From a virus (Monodnaviria; Loebvirae; Hofneiviricota; Faserviricetes; Tubulavirales; Inoviridae), in IMG/VR virus record IMGVR_UViG_2537561933_000001, positions 1 to 8,130 of that record: a DNA stretch of 8,130 bases; one strand, 5' to 3'. The notes under the pieces were generated by a model that was not told the DNA's origin, did no database searches, and worked only from the letters and a program-made list of their open reading frames with translations. The position numbers and the translations under genes were made by a program. This document shows positions 1-8,130 of the stretch, piece by piece; position 1 is the stretch's first letter; every line of letters starts with the position of its first letter.

Positions 1-1455
1 TTATTGATTCGACTCATATGCACTCCATTCATCGCATACATGGGAAAAGGTTGATTTCAGGGCTTCGTTATCAATCACAATTCGCTGAAGATTGGCCGTA
101 TTAGCCTGCTGAGATAGAAATCTTTTAGCGTAAAGATCAGGCATATGGCTATTGTGACTCCAACCGCCAAGTAGCCGTAATTCATCCTTGGCTTCATCCA
201 TCAATCCAACGATAGAAAAGTCTATGGCTGCCAAGTGTGAGTTGGCCTTAATTTTTTGAAGTTTATCACGATAAATACGTTGAAGTGTTAAATAAGCCCA
301 AGTATGCCGCGTTATATGAGGCGAGATGCTTTCAATGGCATCATAATATTCATCTTTTTTATATTCAGGATACTGCACACTCATAATGTCATCAATACGG
401 GTAAAGATATCATAGACTGCATGGTATGACAGTGGCGGATGTAGTCTTTGGGTGGAAGTGAACAGAAAACTATGGGAGGCTTGAGGGCGGATTTTATGGA
501 TATATATATTTAGAAAATGAAAGTCCAGTTTATCTAATGCCAGCACCCGGTTTGCATAAACATTTTTTAATGAAGGCAATCTTTTTCGTTGATCCGAAAC
601 GTCGTCATCTACTGTGGTCACAATCAGGCTGAACTGATCCCCTCGGAGATTTGGTTTGATCGAATGACACTCCAAAAGCAGTAATTCACTGACACGCAAT
701 CCGTAATTTAAAAGCAATCTGCAAATCAGAAAATTACGTAGCTGGATTTCACCAGCGGGGAAGGGATTGAGTGGGTTTTTCTTTGAAATTGAACCGGGTG
801 TAATGATTTGGTAAAAAGCCATGACCATCTCAGCAGTCAGACTTCGAAAGCGTTTATGGGTCGTGCCATTGTTCATCTGACGAGAATGGGTAAGAGTACG
901 GAATTCTGCCTTATGTATCGATAAACGTCCCGTTAACTGCGTGGCAAGTCGTGTAAGCTCTTTAGGCGTGCCATCTATATATCTCGGCGAGATATACGTG
1001 TTAATCAAATATCTGATAAAACGAATAACCGAATGTACATGCCTGATATTTGTACAACGTTGAGGCGTGGTCTGCGTAGTAGACCTTATGGTTAACGCTG
1101 GTACATATAAATGCGTATTTTCCAGATAATGAAAAAAGGCTGTAAGTTCATCAATGGCAATCAATGGATTGTGGTTCGAGGAATAGAAACTGAAGCAAAA
1201 AGTCACACCATGTTTCTGGTGCCAGAATTCATAGAAAAACTTGAGCGCTTGAAGTGAAGCGGATTGCGTGGCTGATGAACGCAAAGCAAGATGGTCGATA
1301 AGATATATTAACGGATATAAAAGCGGCTGGCGCGTGTGAGTATCCATCAGTGCCCATAAACGCTGCCGTTGGTTGATATTGAGTTGTGTAAGTATGAACA
1401 CGCGGCACTTAACCTTATCAATGGTGTGGATATGAACAAAGTAACCGACAAACAT
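1..1455 (-). CDS. Tyrosine site-specific recombinase / integrase-family protein (about 484 aa from ATG at 1453-1455; ORF track extends to a TTG at 1465-1467)
   Basis: Complete minus-strand ORF with stop at 1-3 (TAA). Translation contains the tyrosine-recombinase catalytic signature in correct order: box I Arg in 'YGLRVSELLLLE', 'HITRHTW' (HxxRH-like box II), and 'LGGWSHNSHMPDLYAK' (LG[HW]...Y catalytic Tyr region). ATG at 1453-1455 is preceded by AGGA (GCAGGACGTT-ATG). Start codon choice is uncertain. Long N-terminal region (about 250 aa) precedes the catalytic domain. Confidence 0.75.
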   Translation of the reverse strand: MFVGYFVHIHTIDKVKCRVFILTQLNINQRQRLWALMDTHTRQPLLYPLIYLIDHLALRSSATQSASLQALKFFYEFWHQKHGVTFCFSFYSSNHNPLIAIDELTAFFHYLENTHLYVPALTIRSTTQTTPQRCTNIRHVHSVIRFIRYLINTYISPRYIDGTPKELTRLATQLTGRLSIHKAEFRTLTHSRQMNNGTTHKRFRSLTAEMVMAFYQIITPGSISKKNPLNPFPAGEIQLRNFLICRLLLNYGLRVSELLLLECHSIKPNLRGDQFSLIVTTVDDDVSDQRKRLPSLKNVYANRVLALDKLDFHFLNIYIHKIRPQASHSFLFTSTQRLHPPLSYHAVYDIFTRIDDIMSVQYPEYKKDEYYDAIESISPHITRHTWAYLTLQRIYRDKLQKIKANSHLAAIDFSIVGLMDEAKDELRLLGGWSHNSHMPDLYAKRFLSQQANTANLQRIVIDNEALKSTFSHVCDEWSAYESNQ

Positions 1456-1546
1456 AACGTCCTGCAAGAAGAAGATAGAGGGGTAGGTAAGTGTATGATT
1501 AATCGTATCCTGTGGCCGGTTATGAACTAAATGACCGACGGACTAA

Positions 1547-1574
1547 ATTTAACATAATATACATTATGCGCACC
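1547..1574 (-). other. dif: 28-bp XerC/XerD recombination site dif (chromosome dimer resolution site), here the prophage/chromosome junction
   Basis: Plus strand 1547-1574 reads ATTTAACATAATATACATTATGCGCACC, the exact reverse complement of the canonical E. coli dif sequence GGTGCGCATAA-TGTATA-TTATGTTAAAT (XerC arm, 6-bp centre, XerD arm) as I recall it; 28/28 match. Lies 38 bp beyond the stop of the 77-aa cargo gene and about 90 bp upstream of the recombinase start. Confidence 0.85.
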
Positions 1575-1612
1575 AATGGTAAGGATGGCGGGAACTGGCG
1601 TTACCGGTGCCG

Positions 1613-1846
1613 TCATTGGTCACAGACCGTAATCCACTGGCCCAGGACGTCTTTCAGGCAATGTTGGCATAAATCCAGTTTTAAGCGATTACTGTCACCA
1701 AAAATTGAACCGTATCCAGCTAAGTGATTAACAGACAGAAACTCATTGAACTCAATGTCATCTACCACCGTCTTCGCATGGCGACCACAGCGATCGCAGG
1801 TCTTCGCACATAACATTACAGTATCGCTGGATGTGAAAAATTGCAT
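1613..1846 (-). CDS. Small zinc-ribbon protein (77 aa, two CxxC pairs), function unknown; prophage cargo next to dif
   Basis: ORF with ATG at 1844-1846 preceded by strong RBS (GAGGAGATAAA-ATG). Stop TGA at 1613-1615. Protein has CDRC (C17/C20) and CQHC (C60/C63) plus C13 and C75, consistent with a Zn-ribbon. No confident family assignment from memory. Confidence 0.6.
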   Translation of the reverse strand: MQFFTSSDTVMLCAKTCDRCGRHAKTVVDDIEFNEFLSVNHLAGYGSIFGDSNRLKLDLCQHCLKDVLGQWITVCDQ

Positions 1847-1919
1847 TTTATCTCCTCGTAATGCTGCCGCGCCGAATCAGCAATAACGCTAAAAAAACAG
1901 AATTGTTCGGCTTGGCCAA

Positions 1920-1960
1920 CCCCTGACACTAACAAAAGCAAGTTTTGTCATTGTCCGGGG
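1920..1960. promoter_or_regulatory. Imperfect 18-bp inverted repeat (15/18) around a 5-bp centre; candidate operator or structured RNA element between the two cargo genes
   Basis: CCCCTGACACTAACAAAA-gcaag-TTTTGTCATTGTCCGGGG; arms at 1920-1937 and 1943-1960, centre 1938-1942. Located in the 117-bp gap between the 102-aa gene stop (1964) and the 77-aa gene start (1846). No convincing sigma70 -35/-10 pair found nearby. Confidence 0.35.
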
Positions 1961-1963
1961 TTA

Positions 1964-2272
1964 TCATATAAACCAATAGACCGTCCTTACGCCATTCTGG
2001 TTATCAATAACATAGCCGCATTGTTTCCTTAAAAATTCTTCTGCTAAATCAATGGCTTTTACAGAAATCTCATAAGAAGGAAGTAAAGTGTATCCTTTCC
2101 CTTCACTGGCAGCTGCTTTGATCGCATCCAGAGTATTATCAATCAGTAACAGAGCAAGTGATGCTTCATTTACCTGAGCCGAAGAACTTCTGGCTGCAAG
2201 TGTCATTGTTTTTGCTTCTTCCGCTGTAATCGTTCGTTCTGCCAGAGCAGATAAAATCCCATAAGAATCCAT
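1964..2272 (-). CDS. Hypothetical protein (102 aa), Ala/Leu/Glu-rich, function unknown; prophage cargo downstream of gIV
   Basis: ORF with ATG at 2270-2272 preceded by GGGG (TTGGGGTAACTA-ATG); stop TGA 1964-1966. Same strand as phage genes and sits between gIV and dif. No recognisable motif. Confidence 0.5.
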   Translation of the reverse strand: MDSYGILSALAERTITAEEAKTMTLAARSSSAQVNEASLALLLIDNTLDAIKAAASEGKGYTLLPSYEISVKAIDLAEEFLRKQCGYVIDNQNGVRTVYWFI

Positions 2273-2297
2273 TAGTTACCCCAATCAATAATGTCCA

Positions 2298-2346
2298 TTT
2301 GATGGATAGCGAGCAGGGCTCACGCACCTACCCGCTATCCATCAAA
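2298..2346. repeat. Perfect 14-bp inverted repeat with 21-nt spacer overlapping the gIV stop codon (potential hairpin: packaging-signal-like or termination element)
   Basis: Left arm 2298-2311 TTTGATGGATAGCG; right arm 2333-2346 CGCTATCCATCAAA (exact reverse complement). gIV stop TGA is at 2342-2344 inside the right arm. No U-tract follows on the minus strand, so it is not a canonical intrinsic terminator. Confidence 0.7.
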
Positions 2347-3607
2347 GTGGACGAATGATATGTGCTGTAAGCAAAATATACATAATACGCTGTTCATTGC
2401 TGTCTGCCTTGCTACTGAAAATCCAGCCTATAAGAGGAATTTTACTTATAACTGGAACTGAACGCTCGGCATTGCTGAACGATGAATCGATAAGCCCTCC
2501 CAATAACAACGTCTGACCATCCTTAATCTGGACTGTCGTCTGAATCTGGCGCTGATTAGTAATAATATCGGATGCCTGATCATCATTGCTGATTGAATCA
2601 GCGCGAGTGTCGATAGTCAGAACTAGTTGCCCGTTACCCATGACAACAGGCGTTACCTTGAGAGAAACGCCAACATCATGACGCTCGATAGTCTGAAACG
2701 GATTATTTACCCCGGCAGATTCGCCCGTTACCTTTCCGGTGATAAACGGCACATTCTTACCTACGGAAATGTAACCAGTCTGACCAGACTGAGTAAGAAT
2801 ACGCGGCGTTGAAATCACCTTAGAGCGTGAATTACTCTGGACAGCACGCAGAGACAGCGCCAACACGTTACCATCAAAAATACCAAAAGACCCGCCCGCC
2901 GTAGAAAGAGCGCTACCCAGTGCAGAAGTATTAAAGCCCCCCGCAACCTTATGACCGGATGCAGACCCTGCCGCAAACGATAAATCAACGCCATCAGACA
3001 AGCTGGTTTCAAACATCAGCGACTGAATGAGAACCTGATCGCGGGCAACATCCACAGAATTGATAAAATCGGACAGAACCGGCAGCAGCTCGTCAGGCGC
3101 AGAAACAATCAGCGAGTTATTGCCTGGATAATCCACGACATTACCACCACCATTAGAATCAAGATAAATTTTAATCAGTTGCTGAACATCGGACGATCTA
3201 ACTTTTGTCAGCTTAAAATTTCTGACCGTAAGCGCCACAGGTACTGGCTGGTAAGATGGCTCAGAAGGAAAAGTATCATAAGACTGGTTATCAGAATCAT
3301 CGGAATCCGAAACCATCTGTGAAGGTAATTTAGACGGCAAAGAGACTACCGCAGGATTGCCAGAAAGCATGACAAAACCGTTAGCATTCAGAACAGACTT
3401 AAAGAAATCATCAATATTTGTTGGATTAACATCAGCATTAAATACGGTTACGTTTCCTTTAATATCAGGATTAACAATAACAGGCTTGCCAGTTTTTGAA
3501 GAATACCACTGAACAAATGAGCGAACAGATGAATTATTTAAATTAACAGTTTCAGCAGAAACGCAGAATGAACAGGCAAATAAAAAAGCAACAATAACAG
3601 AGCGCAT
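2342..3607 (-). CDS. IV: Filamentous-phage pIV outer-membrane secretin (virion export channel)
   Basis: Translation aligns along its length with M13 pIV as I recall it (e.g. GGSFGIF.G.VL.LS.RA...NS.SK..S.PRILT.SGQ.G.ISVG.NVPFITG.VTGESA.VNNPFQTIER; C-terminal SKIPLIG..FSS..DSNE). Start placed at ATG 3605-3607 (M32 of the track ORF), which gives a signal peptide MRSVIVAFLFACSFCVSA and is preceded by AGGAG. The track ORF start at 3700 would overlap gI. Confidence 0.95.
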   Translation of the reverse strand: MRSVIVAFLFACSFCVSAETVNLNNSSVRSFVQWYSSKTGKPVIVNPDIKGNVTVFNADVNPTNIDDFFKSVLNANGFVMLSGNPAVVSLPSKLPSQMVSDSDDSDNQSYDTFPSEPSYQPVPVALTVRNFKLTKVRSSDVQQLIKIYLDSNGGGNVVDYPGNNSLIVSAPDELLPVLSDFINSVDVARDQVLIQSLMFETSLSDGVDLSFAAGSASGHKVAGGFNTSALGSALSTAGGSFGIFDGNVLALSLRAVQSNSRSKVISTPRILTQSGQTGYISVGKNVPFITGKVTGESAGVNNPFQTIERHDVGVSLKVTPVVMGNGQLVLTIDTRADSISNDDQASDIITNQRQIQTTVQIKDGQTLLLGGLIDSSFSNAERSVPVISKIPLIGWIFSSKADSNEQRIMYILLTAHIIRPL

Positions 3608-3614
3608 AATAATA

Positions 3615-3989
3615 TTACTCCTGACAGGTAACAGTCTGTAAATAACGGCCTTTTCTAATAACAACACGACAGGCATCTTTAATATCAACGGAATAACCAT
3701 CTTTAATCAAATCAAAATACTGATATTTCATACCTTTTGCATCAACAAACGTAACGGAAACGTCAAAGCCAAGTTGTGAAAAAGAATTAATAGAAAGTCG
3801 GGGTAAGTCACTGGACGAATCAGGCGTTACCGCCCTCGCCTGTTCAGCATAAGCAGATTTAATAGCTGAGATTTCATCAACATTCTTTCCAGACTGGAGC
3901 CAGAAACCAAACGCAAGCCCCAGCGCCAAAAAAGAAAGCATTAATATAAGACGGTTCGATTTGCGAAAATAAATTTTAGTGAGGCGCAT
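3615..3989 (-). CDS. XI: Candidate pXI (in-frame internal start within gI, C-terminal membrane-anchored portion)
   Basis: In-frame ATG at 3987-3989 (M241 of pI) giving MRLTKIYFRKSNRLILMLSFLALGL..., positionally and sequence-wise matching the M13 pXI start (MKLTKIYLKKFSRVLCLAIGF as I recall). Expression is not demonstrable from sequence. Confidence 0.45.
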   Translation of the reverse strand: MRLTKIYFRKSNRLILMLSFLALGLAFGFWLQSGKNVDEISAIKSAYAEQARAVTPDSSSDLPRLSINSFSQLGFDVSVTFVDAKGMKYQYFDLIKDGYSVDIKDACRVVIRKGRYLQTVTCQE

Positions 3990-4709
3990 ATAATAATTAA
4001 ATCCTCTGTGAACAGAAAATTGACCGTGCGTGATAAATGGTGGCAAAAGCGAAAATGCGCCATGAGGATAATTATCTGTGAACGCTTGTTTGGTATTGTA
4101 AGCAGAATAAAGATATTTTCCTGTATATATCCATTTATCAACAGTGATTGAATTAACATTATCACCATATTTGACAATGCCAAAGTGTACCTTTGGTAAA
4201 GAAAATCTCGCCCCTGAAACCAAATTCATAATGGAGCCAACAAAAGGAATGTTTAATTTATCTGAACGGCGACAATAAACAACATGCTCAGCAAGCGCCA
4301 GACGAGCTTGCTTATCCATTATCGAAATATCCTGAATCAAAAATATAATATCCCAGCCTAATTTTCTGGCATGTAAAAACCAGTCAATAACAGGTTGTCT
4401 GTCTTTATCACCCCATGAGCGGGAATTAAACCAAGTACCACATTCATCAAGTACAAGGAGGCCATTACGGGATTCATCGTAAGATGCATTCCCAATACCA
4501 ATAGCAAGTAAATCATTTAATGAAGGCTTGTCAGGAATGCGAATAACGCGCGTTTTTTTCGCATAACGCCCAACCATAGGCATATTATGCAATTTAAGAT
4601 CAAGATTAGTGGCAACAGGACAACCCTTAGCAAGTCTTTCCTGTATTCTGGAAACACTAACAAGTGTCTTGCCTGAGCCTAATTTGCCTGTTACTACATA
4701 AACCGCCAT
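3615..4709 (-). CDS. I: Filamentous-phage pI assembly ATPase (Zot-like, Walker A)
   Basis: N-terminus MAVYVVTGKLGSGKTLVSV... with Walker A GKLGSGKT; long stretches match M13 pI as I recall it (RIPDKPS..DLLAIG.GN.SYDE..NGLLVLDECGTWFN.RSW.DK.RQP.IDWFLHARKLGWDIIFL.QD.SI.DKQAR.ALAE.VVYCRR). ATG 4707-4709 immediately follows gVI stop (TAA 4710-4712). Confidence 0.95.
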   Translation of the reverse strand: MAVYVVTGKLGSGKTLVSVSRIQERLAKGCPVATNLDLKLHNMPMVGRYAKKTRVIRIPDKPSLNDLLAIGIGNASYDESRNGLLVLDECGTWFNSRSWGDKDRQPVIDWFLHARKLGWDIIFLIQDISIMDKQARLALAEHVVYCRRSDKLNIPFVGSIMNLVSGARFSLPKVHFGIVKYGDNVNSITVDKWIYTGKYLYSAYNTKQAFTDNYPHGAFSLLPPFITHGQFSVHRGFNYYMRLTKIYFRKSNRLILMLSFLALGLAFGFWLQSGKNVDEISAIKSAYAEQARAVTPDSSSDLPRLSINSFSQLGFDVSVTFVDAKGMKYQYFDLIKDGYSVDIKDACRVVIRKGRYLQTVTCQE

Positions 4710-5051
4710 TTAAATCACCCTGTTTGCATAATCAAGAAATTTTTGTTTTAAATCGAAAACAAAAACACTGATACGAGTAACCATAATAACGTTAACACAC
4801 GCCTGAAAATGGTCAGGCAATACAGACGCCATTAAATGGGAGAAATCAGCAGGTAAACCGTTATACATGACCTCAGCAAGGTACTGCATTAAAAGCGTAA
4901 CAGTTGTTGTAATTAATGCGACCAATGCAAAGGCGATTAATCCTGTTCTGGTAGCAAGTCGAGCTAAAAAACTCGCCACATAGCCAATAAACAAAGGAAC
5001 AAGACCAATAAGAAAACGCAACAATGCAGGAATACCTAATAATAAAGGCAT
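4710..5051 (-). CDS. VI: Filamentous-phage pVI minor coat protein
   Basis: Hydrophobic 113-aa protein [14 protein letters not shown]... ending ...FVFDLKQKFLDYANRVI, matching M13 pVI (MPVLLGIP.LLRFL ... IFIFDVKQKI). ATG at 5049-5051 overlaps the gIII stop TGA (5051-5053) in TGATG (translational coupling). The track shows a GTG one codon upstream. Confidence 0.9.
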   Translation of the reverse strand: MPLLLGIPALLRFLIGLVPLFIGYVASFLARLATRTGLIAFALVALITTTVTLLMQYLAEVMYNGLPADFSHLMASVLPDHFQACVNVIMVTRISVFVFDLKQKFLDYANRVI

Positions 5052-6256
5052 CACTCACCCCCTTTGCGAAGCAATGAAGTTAAAGAAGTAAAGACATACC
5101 AGAACGTAAGGCAATAAAAAACCCATGAAAGAACATCTTTAATAGTCAGTAATTTATCGCAACCAATATCAATCTGATAAACCTCTCCGGGAAATATAAT
5201 AAAATCAGAGCAGCCGTTACCATTGGGTAAATTAGGCAGCATAGCACCTTTATTTAAAAATGCTTCCCATAAAGCACCGTGAGAATCCTTTTCAATTCCC
5301 AATTCAGAATCAGCTAAAGTAGAAGCGCCATCTAATTCAGAGTCGCCCTTTCCATAACGAGAATCACCACCTGAAGGGTCAGCAAAACGGCCAGCCCCCC
5401 GCGTAAGATTGTTAATGGAATCGTCAAGACGATTTATATTATTCCTGGTTTGTTCATCGGCATTTTTTTTATCATCTGATGAAGTGTCTTTCTCCGTTAA
5501 TTTATCATGAATATCGCTGGCTATTTTGGGTGAAGCACCTTCGATCGCAGACTGAATATCACCTTTAGAAAGACTGGAACCACTAGAGCCACCGCCAGAA
5601 CTACCGCCACCGGACTCACCACCGCCAGACTCACCACCACCATTTTGGGGGGTTGAGGGTTTATCAGAGGGGTCAGCTACAGCACCTGTAGGCTTCCATG
5701 TTGCAGCGCAAACAGTACCATCACCCTGACAAACAATGACACCAGTAGCCTCATATTCACAGCCGTTATAGTAGATATAGCGACCACCATCATATGAATC
5801 AACATTATTAAATACACCTTCTTCTGGCGGCTTCGCTTCACAAATTTCTTCTGGTGTCGGGTCAGTAGGTTTTTCATCAGGAACAGAACGCTGAATATTA
5901 CCAACAATATAAGCCGTTAAAGACCAATATTTATCCTTCTGCCCTGGTGAATCGCTGTAAGTACAATCGCCAGTAAAAACAAGACGGAATTCAGAATCAG
6001 GCCAGATACCCTCATAAGTTGGTTTAATCCGAGTAAATACACTCTGAGCACTGGATTTAGCACCCTGACAAGCGGAGGCCTGCATAGCAGCATCAATATA
6101 GTAAACCGTTATCTTAGAGCCATCCTGATTGGTTATTTGCTTACTTTCAGCATAGGCAGAACTTTGATAAGTGGATTTAGTAATGCTTTCCCATGACTCA
6201 GCATGTGAAAAAGGAGAAATGAGGACAGCGGAAAGAATTAATATTTTCCTTCTCAT
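5051..6256 (-). CDS. III: Filamentous-phage pIII adsorption/minor coat protein (401 aa precursor)
   Basis: Start placed at ATG 6254-6256 giving signal peptide [19 protein letters not shown]. The track ORF start at 6400 lies inside gVIII and is rejected. Contains an N1-like TolA-binding domain motif ([19 protein letters not shown] vs M13 NATGVVVCTGDETQCYGTW), a Gly/Ser-rich linker [20 protein letters not shown], and a C-terminal anchor domain matching M13 ([21 protein letters not shown]...WYVFTSL vs CRPFVFSAGKPYEFSIDCDKI...MYVFSTF). Confidence 0.9.
5573..5641 (-). repeat. Short tandem direct repeats encoding the Gly/Ser-rich pIII interdomain linker
   Basis: Plus strand ...GCCACCGCCAGAACTACCGCCACCGGACTCACCACCGCCAGACTCACCACCACC... 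encodes [20 protein letters not shown] on the minus strand; repeated units about 12-15 nt. Confidence 0.6.
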
Positions 6257-6266
6257 AGTAACCCGC

Positions 6267-6293
6267 TTTAATAAAGGGGCAACGAGTGCCCCT
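6267..6293 (-). terminator. Rho-independent terminator between gVIII and gIII (minus strand)
   Basis: Minus strand reads A-GGGGCA-CTCGT-TGCCCC-T followed by TTTATTAAA: 6-7 bp GC-rich stem (6276-6281 / 6287-6292), 5-nt loop, T-rich tail. Position immediately after the major coat gene matches the strong central terminator of Ff phages. Confidence 0.6.
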
Positions 6294-6302
6294 GAGTGAA
6301 AT

Positions 6303-6545
6303 TCAAACCGCTTTTGAAGAGAATTTTTTGAAAATACGAATGGCAAGCCCAGCGCCAACCACAGCAACAACAACAGGCCATACTTTACCAATGAGATCAT
6401 TTGCCTGAGTCAACAAAGCATCCATTGCCTGACCTGCATAATCAGTACCACCTGTAGCGCCTTCAGCCGCAAAAGAACTTGCAGAAATAAAAAGCGCAGT
6501 TGAAGCCAAAGCAATTTTATATTTAACAGTAGACAGAATTTTCAT
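6303..6545 (-). CDS. VIII: Filamentous-phage pVIII major coat protein (80-aa precursor)
   Basis: Signal peptide [26 protein letters not shown] then mature [54 protein letters not shown]. Very close to the IKe mature coat protein as I recall it ([53 protein letters not shown]) and to the M13 C-terminus KLFKKFTSKAS. RBS GGAG upstream of ATG 6543-6545. Confidence 0.95.
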
Positions 6546-6564
6546 AGGAATAACTCCATTAAGG

Positions 6565-6660
6565 TTACATTAATCGGTCAGAAAATGATTTAAATGAACC
6601 GACCGCATAGAAAAGGGCAAAACCAAAGGTATAAGCCCCGAAGAAATAAACGATATACAT
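6565..6660 (-). CDS. IX: pIX-like small minor coat protein (31 aa)
   Basis: ATG at 6658-6660 overlaps the gVII stop (TAATG). Hydrophobic product MYIVYFFGAYTFGFALFYAVGSFKSFSDRLM resembles M13 pIX in size, hydrophobicity and C-terminus (..FTRLM..). It is the C-terminal part of the 74-aa track ORF, whose upstream part overlaps gV and is rejected. Confidence 0.7.
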   Translation of the reverse strand: MYIVYFFGAYTFGFALFYAVGSFKSFSDRLM

Positions 6661-6746
6661 TAACGAAAGACCCCCGCAGTAATCGCGCCGAGGCCAAAAG
6701 AAATAACGATGCCAGACGCTATCAAAATTTGAATAACATCGTCCAT
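6660..6746 (-). CDS. VII: pVII-like small minor coat protein (28 aa); not in the ORF track
   Basis: Manually translated: ATG 6744-6746, 2 nt after gV stop, giving MDDVIQILIASGIVISFGLGAITAGVFR, stop TAA 6660-6662. Resembles M13 pVII (..MIQISVVLCFALGIIAGGQR). RBS-like AAAGG 6 nt upstream. Confidence 0.75.
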   Translation of the reverse strand: MDDVIQILIASGIVISFGLGAITAGVFR

Positions 6747-6748
6747 AT

Positions 6749-7066
6749 TTAACCTTTGATCTCTGCGATGCCACCATCGGAAGCAACATTATAAGTTACA
6801 CCTTCCCTACCCTCCATTGACCACGCACGGACATAGACAGGAATTTGAACTAATTTCCCAATGAAAGCATTCGCCTGGTTCATTAGACCTGCGTTAACGA
6901 GAGCCTGAGAAACTCGAATAATAATTTGATCCTGCTTTGTACCACCAAAACCATCAGGTATTTCAAGGCCAATACCAATTTCATTATAATAGCCCTGACC
7001 ATTAACTTTATTACGTTGGCGGGCTCCCAACATTTTACCCTTAACGAAAAGACCATAATTAGACAT
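6749..7066 (-). CDS. Putative ssDNA-binding protein (gV position), 105 aa
   Basis: Assignment by synteny (between gII and gVII) and size. ATG 7064-7066 preceded by AAAGGAAAG. Sequence is not obviously similar to M13/IKe pV from memory, so the function is positional inference. Confidence 0.55.
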   Translation of the reverse strand: MSNYGLFVKGKMLGARQRNKVNGQGYYNEIGIGLEIPDGFGGTKQDQIIIRVSQALVNAGLMNQANAFIGKLVQIPVYVRAWSMEGREGVTYNVASDGGIAEIKG

Positions 7067-7077
7067 ATTACTTTCCT

Positions 7078-7440
7078 TTAATGCCAGCTACTGGCGTGCG
7101 AAATACGGTTGTAATCGAAAATAAAACCTTTCTCATAAATCCATAAGGGGATTTCCGCTGGCTTGGCTTCCAGCGTTCTTATTAGCGGAACAACGTTATT
7201 AGAGTCTGGTGAATCACAATAGAAATTAATATCGATACCGAACGAAAGCAATTCTCTTCTATGGCGATAAAAAGTGTTATGAGGTAACATTTCTTTCATG
7301 TTAGCCCCTTGTTTCCAAAGTAAATAAGTTGACTGTATTTTTCTTGGCAGTTTCGTTATTTTTTCATCACTTAAAATAGCATTCTGATTCATTTCTATTC
7401 TCCCTACATATTCAGAGAATAATTGACGTGGTGTTTTCAT
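7078..7440 (-). CDS. Candidate pX (in-frame internal start within gII, C-terminal 120 aa)
   Basis: In-frame ATG at 7438-7440 (M231 of the gII product) gives a C-terminal product of similar size to Ff pX (111 aa). Only a weak RBS-like GGAA upstream. Purely by analogy with Ff gene X. Confidence 0.3.
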   Translation of the reverse strand: MKTPRQLFSEYVGRIEMNQNAILSDEKITKLPRKIQSTYLLWKQGANMKEMLPHNTFYRHRRELLSFGIDINFYCDSPDSNNVVPLIRTLEAKPAEIPLWIYEKGFIFDYNRISHASSWH

Positions 7441-8130
7441 ATTCCAGTTAGCGCCAAGCGTTAAATTTAAATCAATAAGCTCAGTTGTTCTTAATGTTAA
7501 TTCAATACGTAATTTATCTTTCGTCCAGTCCAGTAACCCGGCTCGTACAAACTCTTCGGCTATCTGGTGCCCTTTTTTACCAGAAACGTGTTCATCATAT
7601 TTTGAATAAAATTTTAGACTCCATCGACGGGAGTTTTTACCTAAATAAACTGTACCGCCTTTCCCACATGCGCGACCATGGCGTGTTTTAGCTTTAAATT
7701 CGGCGGCATAAAGCCATGATCTGACATTTTCCAGCGTAGATAATGAATACATGTAATTAATGTCAATACGTGAAATTTTATACTGACCTGCCATAACGGC
7801 TTTATAAGACGCTAAATCATGAGGAATATTCAATAAGGATAAAATCCTGGCATAGACCGTCAACATGAGCCCTTGTATATCATCCGACCCAACAACAGAA
7901 TGCCCCTGCAGAAACTTGGAAGGATTACCATCAATGTACAAATGTGTCGCTTTACCTTCGCCATTAGATCCTATCGATCGTACTTTCATCGTTGCTTCAT
8001 GCGAGCCGCGAACAGTCAGTCGCTTAACGGTTTCCCACTCAATTGCACCGTCAGCATCAACGCTGACAACACTCCCCGCCGGAAGCGGTTTGTGTGTGCA
8101 AGGGAAAATCCCGGTAAGCCAATCGATCAC
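7078..8130 (-). CDS. II: Replication initiation protein (gII-like rolling-circle initiator); begins at GTG exactly at the window edge
   Basis: 350-aa ORF at the gII position, directly upstream of gV. N-terminus MIDWL... resembles M13 pII N-terminus (MIDML...) as I recall it. Start codon GTG at 8128-8130 coincides with the window end, so an upstream extension or RBS cannot be checked. Stop TAA 7078-7080. Confidence 0.8.
   Translation of the reverse strand: MIDWLTGIFPCTHKPLPAGSVVSVDADGAIEWETVKRLTVRGSHEATMKVRSIGSNGEGKATHLYIDGNPSKFLQGHSVVGSDDIQGLMLTVYARILSLLNIPHDLASYKAVMAGQYKISRIDINYMYSLSTLENVRSWLYAAEFKAKTRHGRACGKGGTVYLGKNSRRWSLKFYSKYDEHVSGKKGHQIAEEFVRAGLLDWTKDKLRIELTLRTTELIDLNLTLGANWNMKTPRQLFSEYVGRIEMNQNAILSDEKITKLPRKIQSTYLLWKQGANMKEMLPHNTFYRHRRELLSFGIDINFYCDSPDSNNVVPLIRTLEAKPAEIPLWIYEKGFIFDYNRISHASSWH

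Follow-up and report, generated by a model that had tools for sequence, protein, structure and literature searches.

The present analysis concerns two small genes carried by an inovirus of Escherichia coli within a window of 8,130 nucleotides (nt; positions 1 to 8,130 of IMG/VR record IMGVR_UViG_2537561933_000001), and the explanation that probably accounts best for them is that they occupy two independent cargo slots holding unrelated accessory genes, to which can be added, at low confidence, a role for one of the two products as a neutralizer. The genes, referred to here as the open reading frames (ORFs) ORF102 and ORF77 after the lengths of their products in amino acids (aa), lie on the minus strand, ORF102 at 1964-2272 in slot 1 and ORF77 at 1613-1846 in slot 2. 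An initial annotation of this DNA had noted two extra phage-strand ORFs between gIV and the attachment junction, and the coordinates of that arrangement are confirmed, with gIV, the secretin gene and last core gene of the phage, at 2342-3607 and the dif site that terminates the prophage at 1547-1574. Between these landmarks the order is a hairpin (hp1), slot 1, a pair of adjacent hairpins (hp2/hp3), slot 2, and attP, and both slots are hypervariable.

Evidence for the two slots comes from 46 relatives collected by way of gIV, in each of which the content after gIV was scored, and from an alignment of the stretch between the end of gIV and dif in five close relatives. Among phages whose gIV is 93-100% identical, slot 1 contains ORF102, a divergent allele of it (ORF103), an unrelated 82-aa ORF, or nothing, and slot 2 contains ORF77, a 67-aa ORF, approximately 400 nt of non-coding DNA, or almost nothing; most of the alternative small ORFs look spurious, and some merely read through dif. 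Such variation of content among phages with near-identical core genes is what characterizes an inovirus cargo (“moron”) slot, and the proposal of accessory cargo in its classic position is borne out by it, as the same position in CTXφ is that of ctxAB (PMC4266046). Three blocks are conserved independently of the cargo. The first is hp1 (2303-2341, minus strand), which begins right after the gIV stop, forms the upstream edge of slot 1, folds as DNA with z = -4.3 and is kept in all five aligned relatives. The second, the divider between the slots (1866-1963, minus strand; DNA fold z = -3.9), comprises hp2 (1917-1963) and hp3 (1866-1916), and the third is a stretch of about 40 nt before attP. The 117-nt gap between ORF102 and ORF77 is therefore conserved structured backbone: in RNAalifold, hp2/hp3 form 26 pairs, seven with compensatory double changes, across 11 distinct sequences, and the element is present in relatives without ORF102, ORF77 or both, in a UPφ-like genome (L011) and in the more distant L203 and L217.

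Because each gene occurs without the other and a conserved hairpin element lies between them, ORF102 and ORF77 are independent single-gene cassettes in adjacent slots, acquired and exchanged separately. The “two-gene module” of the initial annotation thus has to be given up, since its members sit in different slots split by conserved backbone and show no obligate co-occurrence across the gIV relatives. A toxin-antitoxin-like or otherwise co-dependent pair, which had also been put forward, would accord with two neighboring genes on the same strand and with the antitoxin-type domains seen in some relatives of ORF77. However, either gene is found without the other in close as well as unrelated backbones, the 117-nt structured element intervenes, and ORF102, devoid of any toxin domain, is maintained by itself in Salmonella phages, where an allele of it is found without ORF77; such a pairing is very improbable. 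Fainter still is the prospect that the two genes serve core phage functions in replication, assembly or packaging rather than being cargo, as might be argued from their constant position in CUS-1-type genomes and their presence in the circular replicative form of the phage, given that backbones 93-97% identical lack one or both and that ORF77 is also carried by plasmids and tailed phages. The circular form in question is a 7,938-bp Salmonella “plasmid” that carries gIV, ORF102, ORF77, attP, a Fic/Doc-family gene on the opposite strand, a 60-aa gene and gII. It is evidently a phage replicative form; ORF102 and ORF77 are packaged within the 7.9-kb phage genome.

The window contains 62 ORFs of at least 30 aa, and ORFs of such length also arise by chance; the case for both genes is accordingly made by selection and by family matches. 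The ratio of nonsynonymous to synonymous substitution rates (dN/dS) is 0.05-0.08 for ORF77 and 0.14 for ORF102, as measured against divergent homologs with saturated dS, and both ORFs have strong full-length PHROG matches to families of unknown function (phrog_5435 for ORF77, E=4.5e-46, and phrog_4115). With the coding signal and conservation across relatives in agreement, ORF102 and ORF77 are genuine genes under purifying selection. Several details of the initial annotation hold as well: ORF102 is indeed rich in Ala, Leu and Glu (14.7% Ala, 11.8% Leu and 7.8% Glu), and the 77-aa protein does have two CxxC pairs (C17/C20 and C60/C63) and a strong ribosome-binding site, a Shine-Dalgarno GAGGAG at 1852-1857 on the minus strand that, read from the sequence, stands 5 nt before the ATG. 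As for the structured DNA around the genes, an Rfam search of the region returned only miRNA-model matches on the hairpins, all far below threshold, and no known RNA family explains the region. The hp2/hp3 element could function as a signal for packaging, as an origin of the minus strand or in a terminator-like manner, and the packaging signal or minus-strand origin of these phages may lie in hp1 and hp2/hp3.

ORF102 has an isoelectric point (pI) of 4.7 and is modeled as a soluble cytoplasmic alpha/beta protein. Word-based and exhaustive profile searches of 1.84 billion representatives recovered its own small enterobacterial inovirus family only, and on this showing ORF102 is an orphan restricted to the lineage of this phage; it has no toxin domain, no significant Pfam, NCBIfam or PADLOC match, and no match in a sequence-profile search of the PDB. 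One extra match (P0135) was discarded as probably spurious, as it matches the Pfam dynamin central region, and apparent “gII::ORF102 fusion proteins” in a 90% cluster proved to be a single-linkage artifact traceable to one chimeric contig protein (P0019). Between E. coli-type and Salmonella-type phages (the latter at L008 10001-10312) ORF102 is 60% identical, compared with 88-95% for gI, gIV, gII and gV, and gIII, encoding the receptor-binding protein (51%), is the sole backbone gene to diverge as fast. The divergence of ORF102 is concentrated in its N-terminal third, and its rapidity is compatible with a role at the host interface or in conflict. The C-terminal half may be winged-helix-like in the model, and the protein would represent a second accessory factor unrelated to ORF77.

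ORF77 (pI 5.4) belongs to a much larger family. In its AlphaFold2 model (mean predicted local distance difference test score 86), the first knuckle lies on a beta-hairpin and the second where a strand passes into a helix. No variation is seen across 66 sequences at C20, C60 or C63, and at least 90% of them keep C17, one plasmid homolog having Ser at position 17. With its two CxxC knuckles the protein classes as a Cys4 zinc ribbon, and zinc binding is predicted; the domain can be summarized by the motif CxxC...EFxEF...GYGSxFGDG...DLCQHC. A profile search returned 1,657 proteins at E<=1, drawn from Enterobacterales, Morganellaceae, many Betaproteobacteria and uncultured phages, and 160 loci were gathered from viral and genome collections, placing the family in environmental phages, soil Betaproteobacteria, tailed-phage contigs, plasmids and proteobacterial islands. 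Profile searches and structure prediction, to which the initial annotation had looked for functional clues, therefore delivered a large uncharacterized zinc-ribbon family for ORF77, and for neither protein a match of known function. A relationship of ORF77 to the Lar-like zinc protein ECs_2282 of CUS-1 (strain UM146) was considered and rejected (hhalign probability 2.7%).

Homologs of ORF77 occur without ORF102 in a range of replicons. These include the UPφ-like phage, in which ORF77 is 82% identical even though gIV is 28% identical; a Klebsiella inovirus of the Rep_trans type, in which the homolog is again the last gene before dif; a third inovirus backbone, with a long-tailed form; small Rep3 plasmids of Proteus and Providencia; and large plasmids. 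The homologs on Rep3 plasmids L012/L013 and L188 (6.5-7 kb) are about 55% identical and are accompanied by a SIR2-family protein and a ParE-type toxin-antitoxin pair, and on pZF2-7kb the homolog and the SIR2 gene are divergently oriented. Of 208 distinct sequences of the core domain, 197 are acidic (mean net charge -3.7); acidic residues are conserved at D18, E32, E35, D51 and D58, most of the conserved charged positions being acidic, which argues against a classical DNA-binding domain. In longer relatives, variable tails are appended to an N-terminal ORF77 domain, among them PF09722 (E=4e-14), DUF29 and DUF4926, and a tail motif “...HGGEFP” recurs; PF09722, found only in these longer relatives, is the toxin-binding domain of Xre/MbcA/ParS antitoxins. 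An analysis of neighbors at 137 loci of the family indicates that the long-tailed forms are usually followed within a few nt by another gene, most commonly for an SNase-family nuclease (9/32) and otherwise also for DUF2971/SRAP or Mrr_cat proteins. The short, domain-only forms, of which ORF77 is one, have heterogeneous neighbors, none of them conserved, and thus conform to the usual pattern of small anti-defense or host-modulating genes.

On Burkholderiales chromosomes and in metagenomes (L110-L126, L023), an ORF77-domain protein with a “...FDPxRHGGEFP” tail, sometimes lengthened to 220-330 aa, is followed within 3 nt by a gene for an SNase-family nuclease of about 255 aa, an operon that is a candidate two-gene toxin-immunity or defense module.

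Since the core is acidic, the domain is fused to PF09722, DUF29 and DUF4926, the long forms are coupled to nuclease genes and the short forms are free of conserved neighbors, it is tentatively proposed that ORF77 binds protein rather than DNA and is a small neutralizing or modulating factor, antitoxin-like or anti-defense, that favors its mobile element. ORF77 would then be a minimal zinc-ribbon protein-binding module acting on a cytoplasmic protein; in the long-tailed relatives the same domain would pair with a nuclease-type effector as its immunity or antitoxin-like component, and the bare domain on phages and plasmids would be an orphan neutralizer directed against defense or toxin. There are parallels for such a protein, in that type II antitoxins of the Xre/MbcA/ParS group carry PF09722 at the C-terminus, to which some members of the ORF77 family are N-terminally fused, and the antitoxin MqsA contains a Cys4 zinc domain. 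More speculative is the generalization of this proposal to the whole family, whereby the domain would be a new and widespread zinc-ribbon family of mobile elements, a portable protein-neutralizing module that, when tailed and paired with a nuclease or toxin, makes up a new class of two-gene toxin-immunity or defense systems and, in its bare form, is an orphan antitoxin or anti-defense protein shielding the incoming element. Were ORF77 a neutralizing module, some 1,650 uncharacterized proteins would gain an annotation.

Several observations weigh against this proposal and against the wider explanation of which it is a part. No annotated homolog points to a function for ORF77, and the protein has no Pfam, NCBIfam or PADLOC match; structure searches returned no PDB sequence-profile match and nothing in BFVD with Foldseek at E<=0.001. 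The CcdA-like match in the tail of a longer relative is sub-threshold (E=0.04), no classical toxin (RES, ParE, PIN or CcdB) lies beside the fused relatives, the ORF102 model is moderately confident only, with weak and mixed fold matches, and a scan for promoter and terminator consensus sequences gave nothing assignable to either ORF. Furthermore, canonical PF09722 antitoxins bind DNA by way of their N-terminal domain, so that the ORF77 domain could, by position, be a DNA-binding or dimerization module, which is the main rival to the neutralizer role. In such a scenario ORF77 would be a small DNA-binding regulator whose zinc ribbon stands in place of the helix-turn-helix (HTH) or ribbon-helix-helix of an antitoxin or repressor, and which controls transcription of phage or host or binds the nearby attP or hp2 DNA; set against the acidic core, this appears rather unlikely. 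Membership of a known anti-phage defense system, one of the roles first suggested for these genes, finds no backing in PADLOC, which returned for either protein nothing beyond chance level, the single match being to Cas8b (E=0.023).

Proximity to dif raises the further scenario that ORF77 or ORF102 is an accessory factor for Xer recombination at the adjoining dif/attP, comparable to XafT of TLCφ. Like XafT, ORF77 is a small phage protein beside a dif-type site, and an ORF77 homolog is the last gene before dif in four inovirus backbones (39-213 nt away in three of them) and lies, in L116/L117, inside a cassette flanked by cer-like Xer sites. Unlike XafT, it has no XafT-type or HTH domain in a Pfam scan at E<=1, and most loci of its family, such as those on tailed-phage contigs and Burkholderiales chromosomes, have no Xer site nearby; in addition, relatives without ORF77, ORF102 or both are still integrated at dif. 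The structure of attP also bears on this question. At the junction between tandem copies (L001 20046-20150) it consists of two inverted dif-like sites, GGTTCGCACAATGACGTTATGCTAAAG and GGTGCGCATAATGTACGACTCGTTATGTTG, around a GC-rich stem, and on the packaged strand a long forked hairpin is predicted (-29.2 kcal/mol, z = -7.6). This resembles the single-stranded attP of CTXφ, a type that uses host XerCD without a phage factor and that had already been proposed for YpfΦ (PMC4266046). Xer-mediated integration would then need neither ORF77 nor ORF102, and the XafT-like activation raised in the initial annotation is improbable. The spacer between the ORF77 stop and dif (1575-1612, minus strand) is kept, according to the alignment, in relatives with or without ORF77, and its counterpart at the tandem-copy junction runs into the two inverted dif-like sites.

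L116/L117 are small enterobacterial contigs from metagenome-assembled genomes of the rabbit gut, on which arrays of segments of about 0.6-1 kb lie between directly oriented cer-like Xer sites (GGTGCGCGTTATGGNACGTTATGGTAAAT); the ORF77 homolog shares one of these segments with a 100-aa ORF, and the arrays may represent Xer-site-bounded cassettes.

The phage itself can be placed with confidence. The minus strand of the window carries a complete inovirus gene set (gII, gV, gVIII, gIII, gVI, gI/Zot and gIV), with gII (7078-8130, minus strand) truncated by the window end and gIV (minus strand) identified by Pfam Secretin (E=6.6e-43), GspD N0 and Secretin_N matches and by RefSeq annotation. The dif site on the same strand is a perfect 28-bp E. 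coli site, GGTGCGCATAATGTATATTATGTTAAAT, with 0 mismatches (0 of 200 shuffles match and 0 matches are expected by chance), and represents the attachment junction reconstituted where the prophage array ends; the prophage end is placed there because matches in other E. coli genomes start at window positions 1546-1548. E. coli KFu015, in which the prophage is tandemly repeated, matches the whole window at 100% identity, and the prophage of E. coli UM146 does so for the part that starts with dif; blastn of a phage collection returned no match. The window thus represents the end nearest dif of a CUS-1/YpfΦ-type inovirus integrated in tandem in E. coli.

Further observations relate to the surroundings of the prophage. 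Cargo across attP, on the other arm beyond the window (L001 18976-20045; L002 15842-17318), varies too: the present phage variant encodes there a 244-aa Fic/Doc-family protein with no obvious antitoxin, and CUS-1 of UM146 has three ORFs instead, including the zinc protein ECs_2282, whose match to Lar (restriction alleviation) is weak and sub-threshold. Window positions 1-1546 belong to a different mobile element whose first base directly follows the XerD arm of dif, the boundary falling between TTATGTTAAAT and TTAGTCCGTCGG. This element extends through L001 6271-12147 and is also present in L014 (6471-12231); its products comprise two overlapping tyrosine recombinases (466/488 aa and 516 aa), along with a protein of 788 aa and one of 144 aa that has no Pfam family. 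A copy 92.8% identical over 5.76 kb occupies the same position beside an unrelated Klebsiella inovirus, other copies of which have chromosomal flanks rather than the element, and the element looks like one that targets the dif edge; a search over 12 kb turned up no second dif-like site. A second element abuts dif in Salmonella L008/L009, where tailed-prophage lysis and tail genes begin directly past the inovirus-terminal dif (from 10951). Finally, E. coli EC5502 (NZ_CP092647.1) has 16 separate matches to the ORF102-ORF77 region, compared with a median of 2 per positive genome, and carries the frameshifted variants P0004 and P0022; its excess reflects either an unusually large tandem array or misassembly of repeats.

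The locus has a history of its own. In YpfΦ, YPO2280a and YPO2281 lie directly beside attR and were described as having “no predictable function,” and E. coli K1 CUS-1 carries their homologs within a 7.1-kb segment of 99% nucleotide identity to YpfΦ (PMC4266046). ORF102 and ORF77 likewise follow the secretin gene and adjoin dif (attR) in a tandem dif-integrated inovirus of gene order gII-gV-gVII-gVIII-gIII-gVI-gI-gIV, and, given this position and a sequence 100% identical to that of a CUS-1-type prophage in E. coli, they are the already-described CUS-1/YpfΦ accessory ORFs; their equivalence to Y. pestis YPO2280a/YPO2281 derives from the 99% identity stated in that review rather than from a direct Y. 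pestis alignment. Later literature, as searched, assigns no function to ORFs of this type. Phages of the group are linked to neonatal-meningitis E. coli and third-pandemic Y. pestis, and their accessory region has long been noted and left unexplained. One or both proteins could accordingly be conceived of as virulence or host-fitness factors acting on the animal host, as suggested at the outset: ctxAB occupies the equivalent position in CTXφ, YpfΦ and CUS-1 confer a modest fitness gain in vivo (PMC4266046), and ORF102/ORF77 are present in 49 of 5,426 complete E. coli genomes, many of them from human isolates. However, inspection showed no signal peptide or transmembrane segment in either protein, the ORF77 family extends broadly through environmental phages and soil Betaproteobacteria, and the published in vivo effects are not mapped to these ORFs; such a role is improbable. 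The same lack of export signals and environmental spread of the family were noted with regard to superinfection exclusion, another of the roles first suggested. Published knock-outs address core genes only (PMC4266046). With two independent slots, one occupied by a member of a large family and the other by a fast-evolving orphan, the genes are best considered separately, and it is the ORF77 family, rather than a locus already in the literature, that is the part of the finding most worth following.

Comparison with known filamentous phages places these genes in a recognizable niche. The hairpins of Ff phages, which provide the packaging signal and minus-strand origin after gIV, are like hp1 and hp2/hp3 in being structured non-coding DNA downstream of gIV on the packaged strand; unlike them, hp1 and hp2/hp3 are interleaved with cargo slots, and the likeness is one of position and structure, with no sequence similarity claimed. 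The interval from gIV to attP holds intergenic DNA only in Ff, IKe and I2-2, and it is the same accessory niche in which ctxAB of CTXφ and the “novel genes” of UPφ are found (PMC4266046; PMC7307601). In contrast to ctxAB, which encodes a secreted AB5 toxin, ORF77 and ORF102 are unrelated small cytoplasmic proteins. The UPφ report describes homology to YpfΦ for genes II and V only (PMC7307601), and the ORF77 homolog (82% identity) of the UPφ-like genome L011 goes unmentioned in it. The closest counterparts are YPO2280a/YPO2281 and their homologs in CUS-1 of E. coli O18:K1:H7, which share with ORF102 and ORF77 the phage type, the position and the status of genes without predictable function, with no substantive difference between them.

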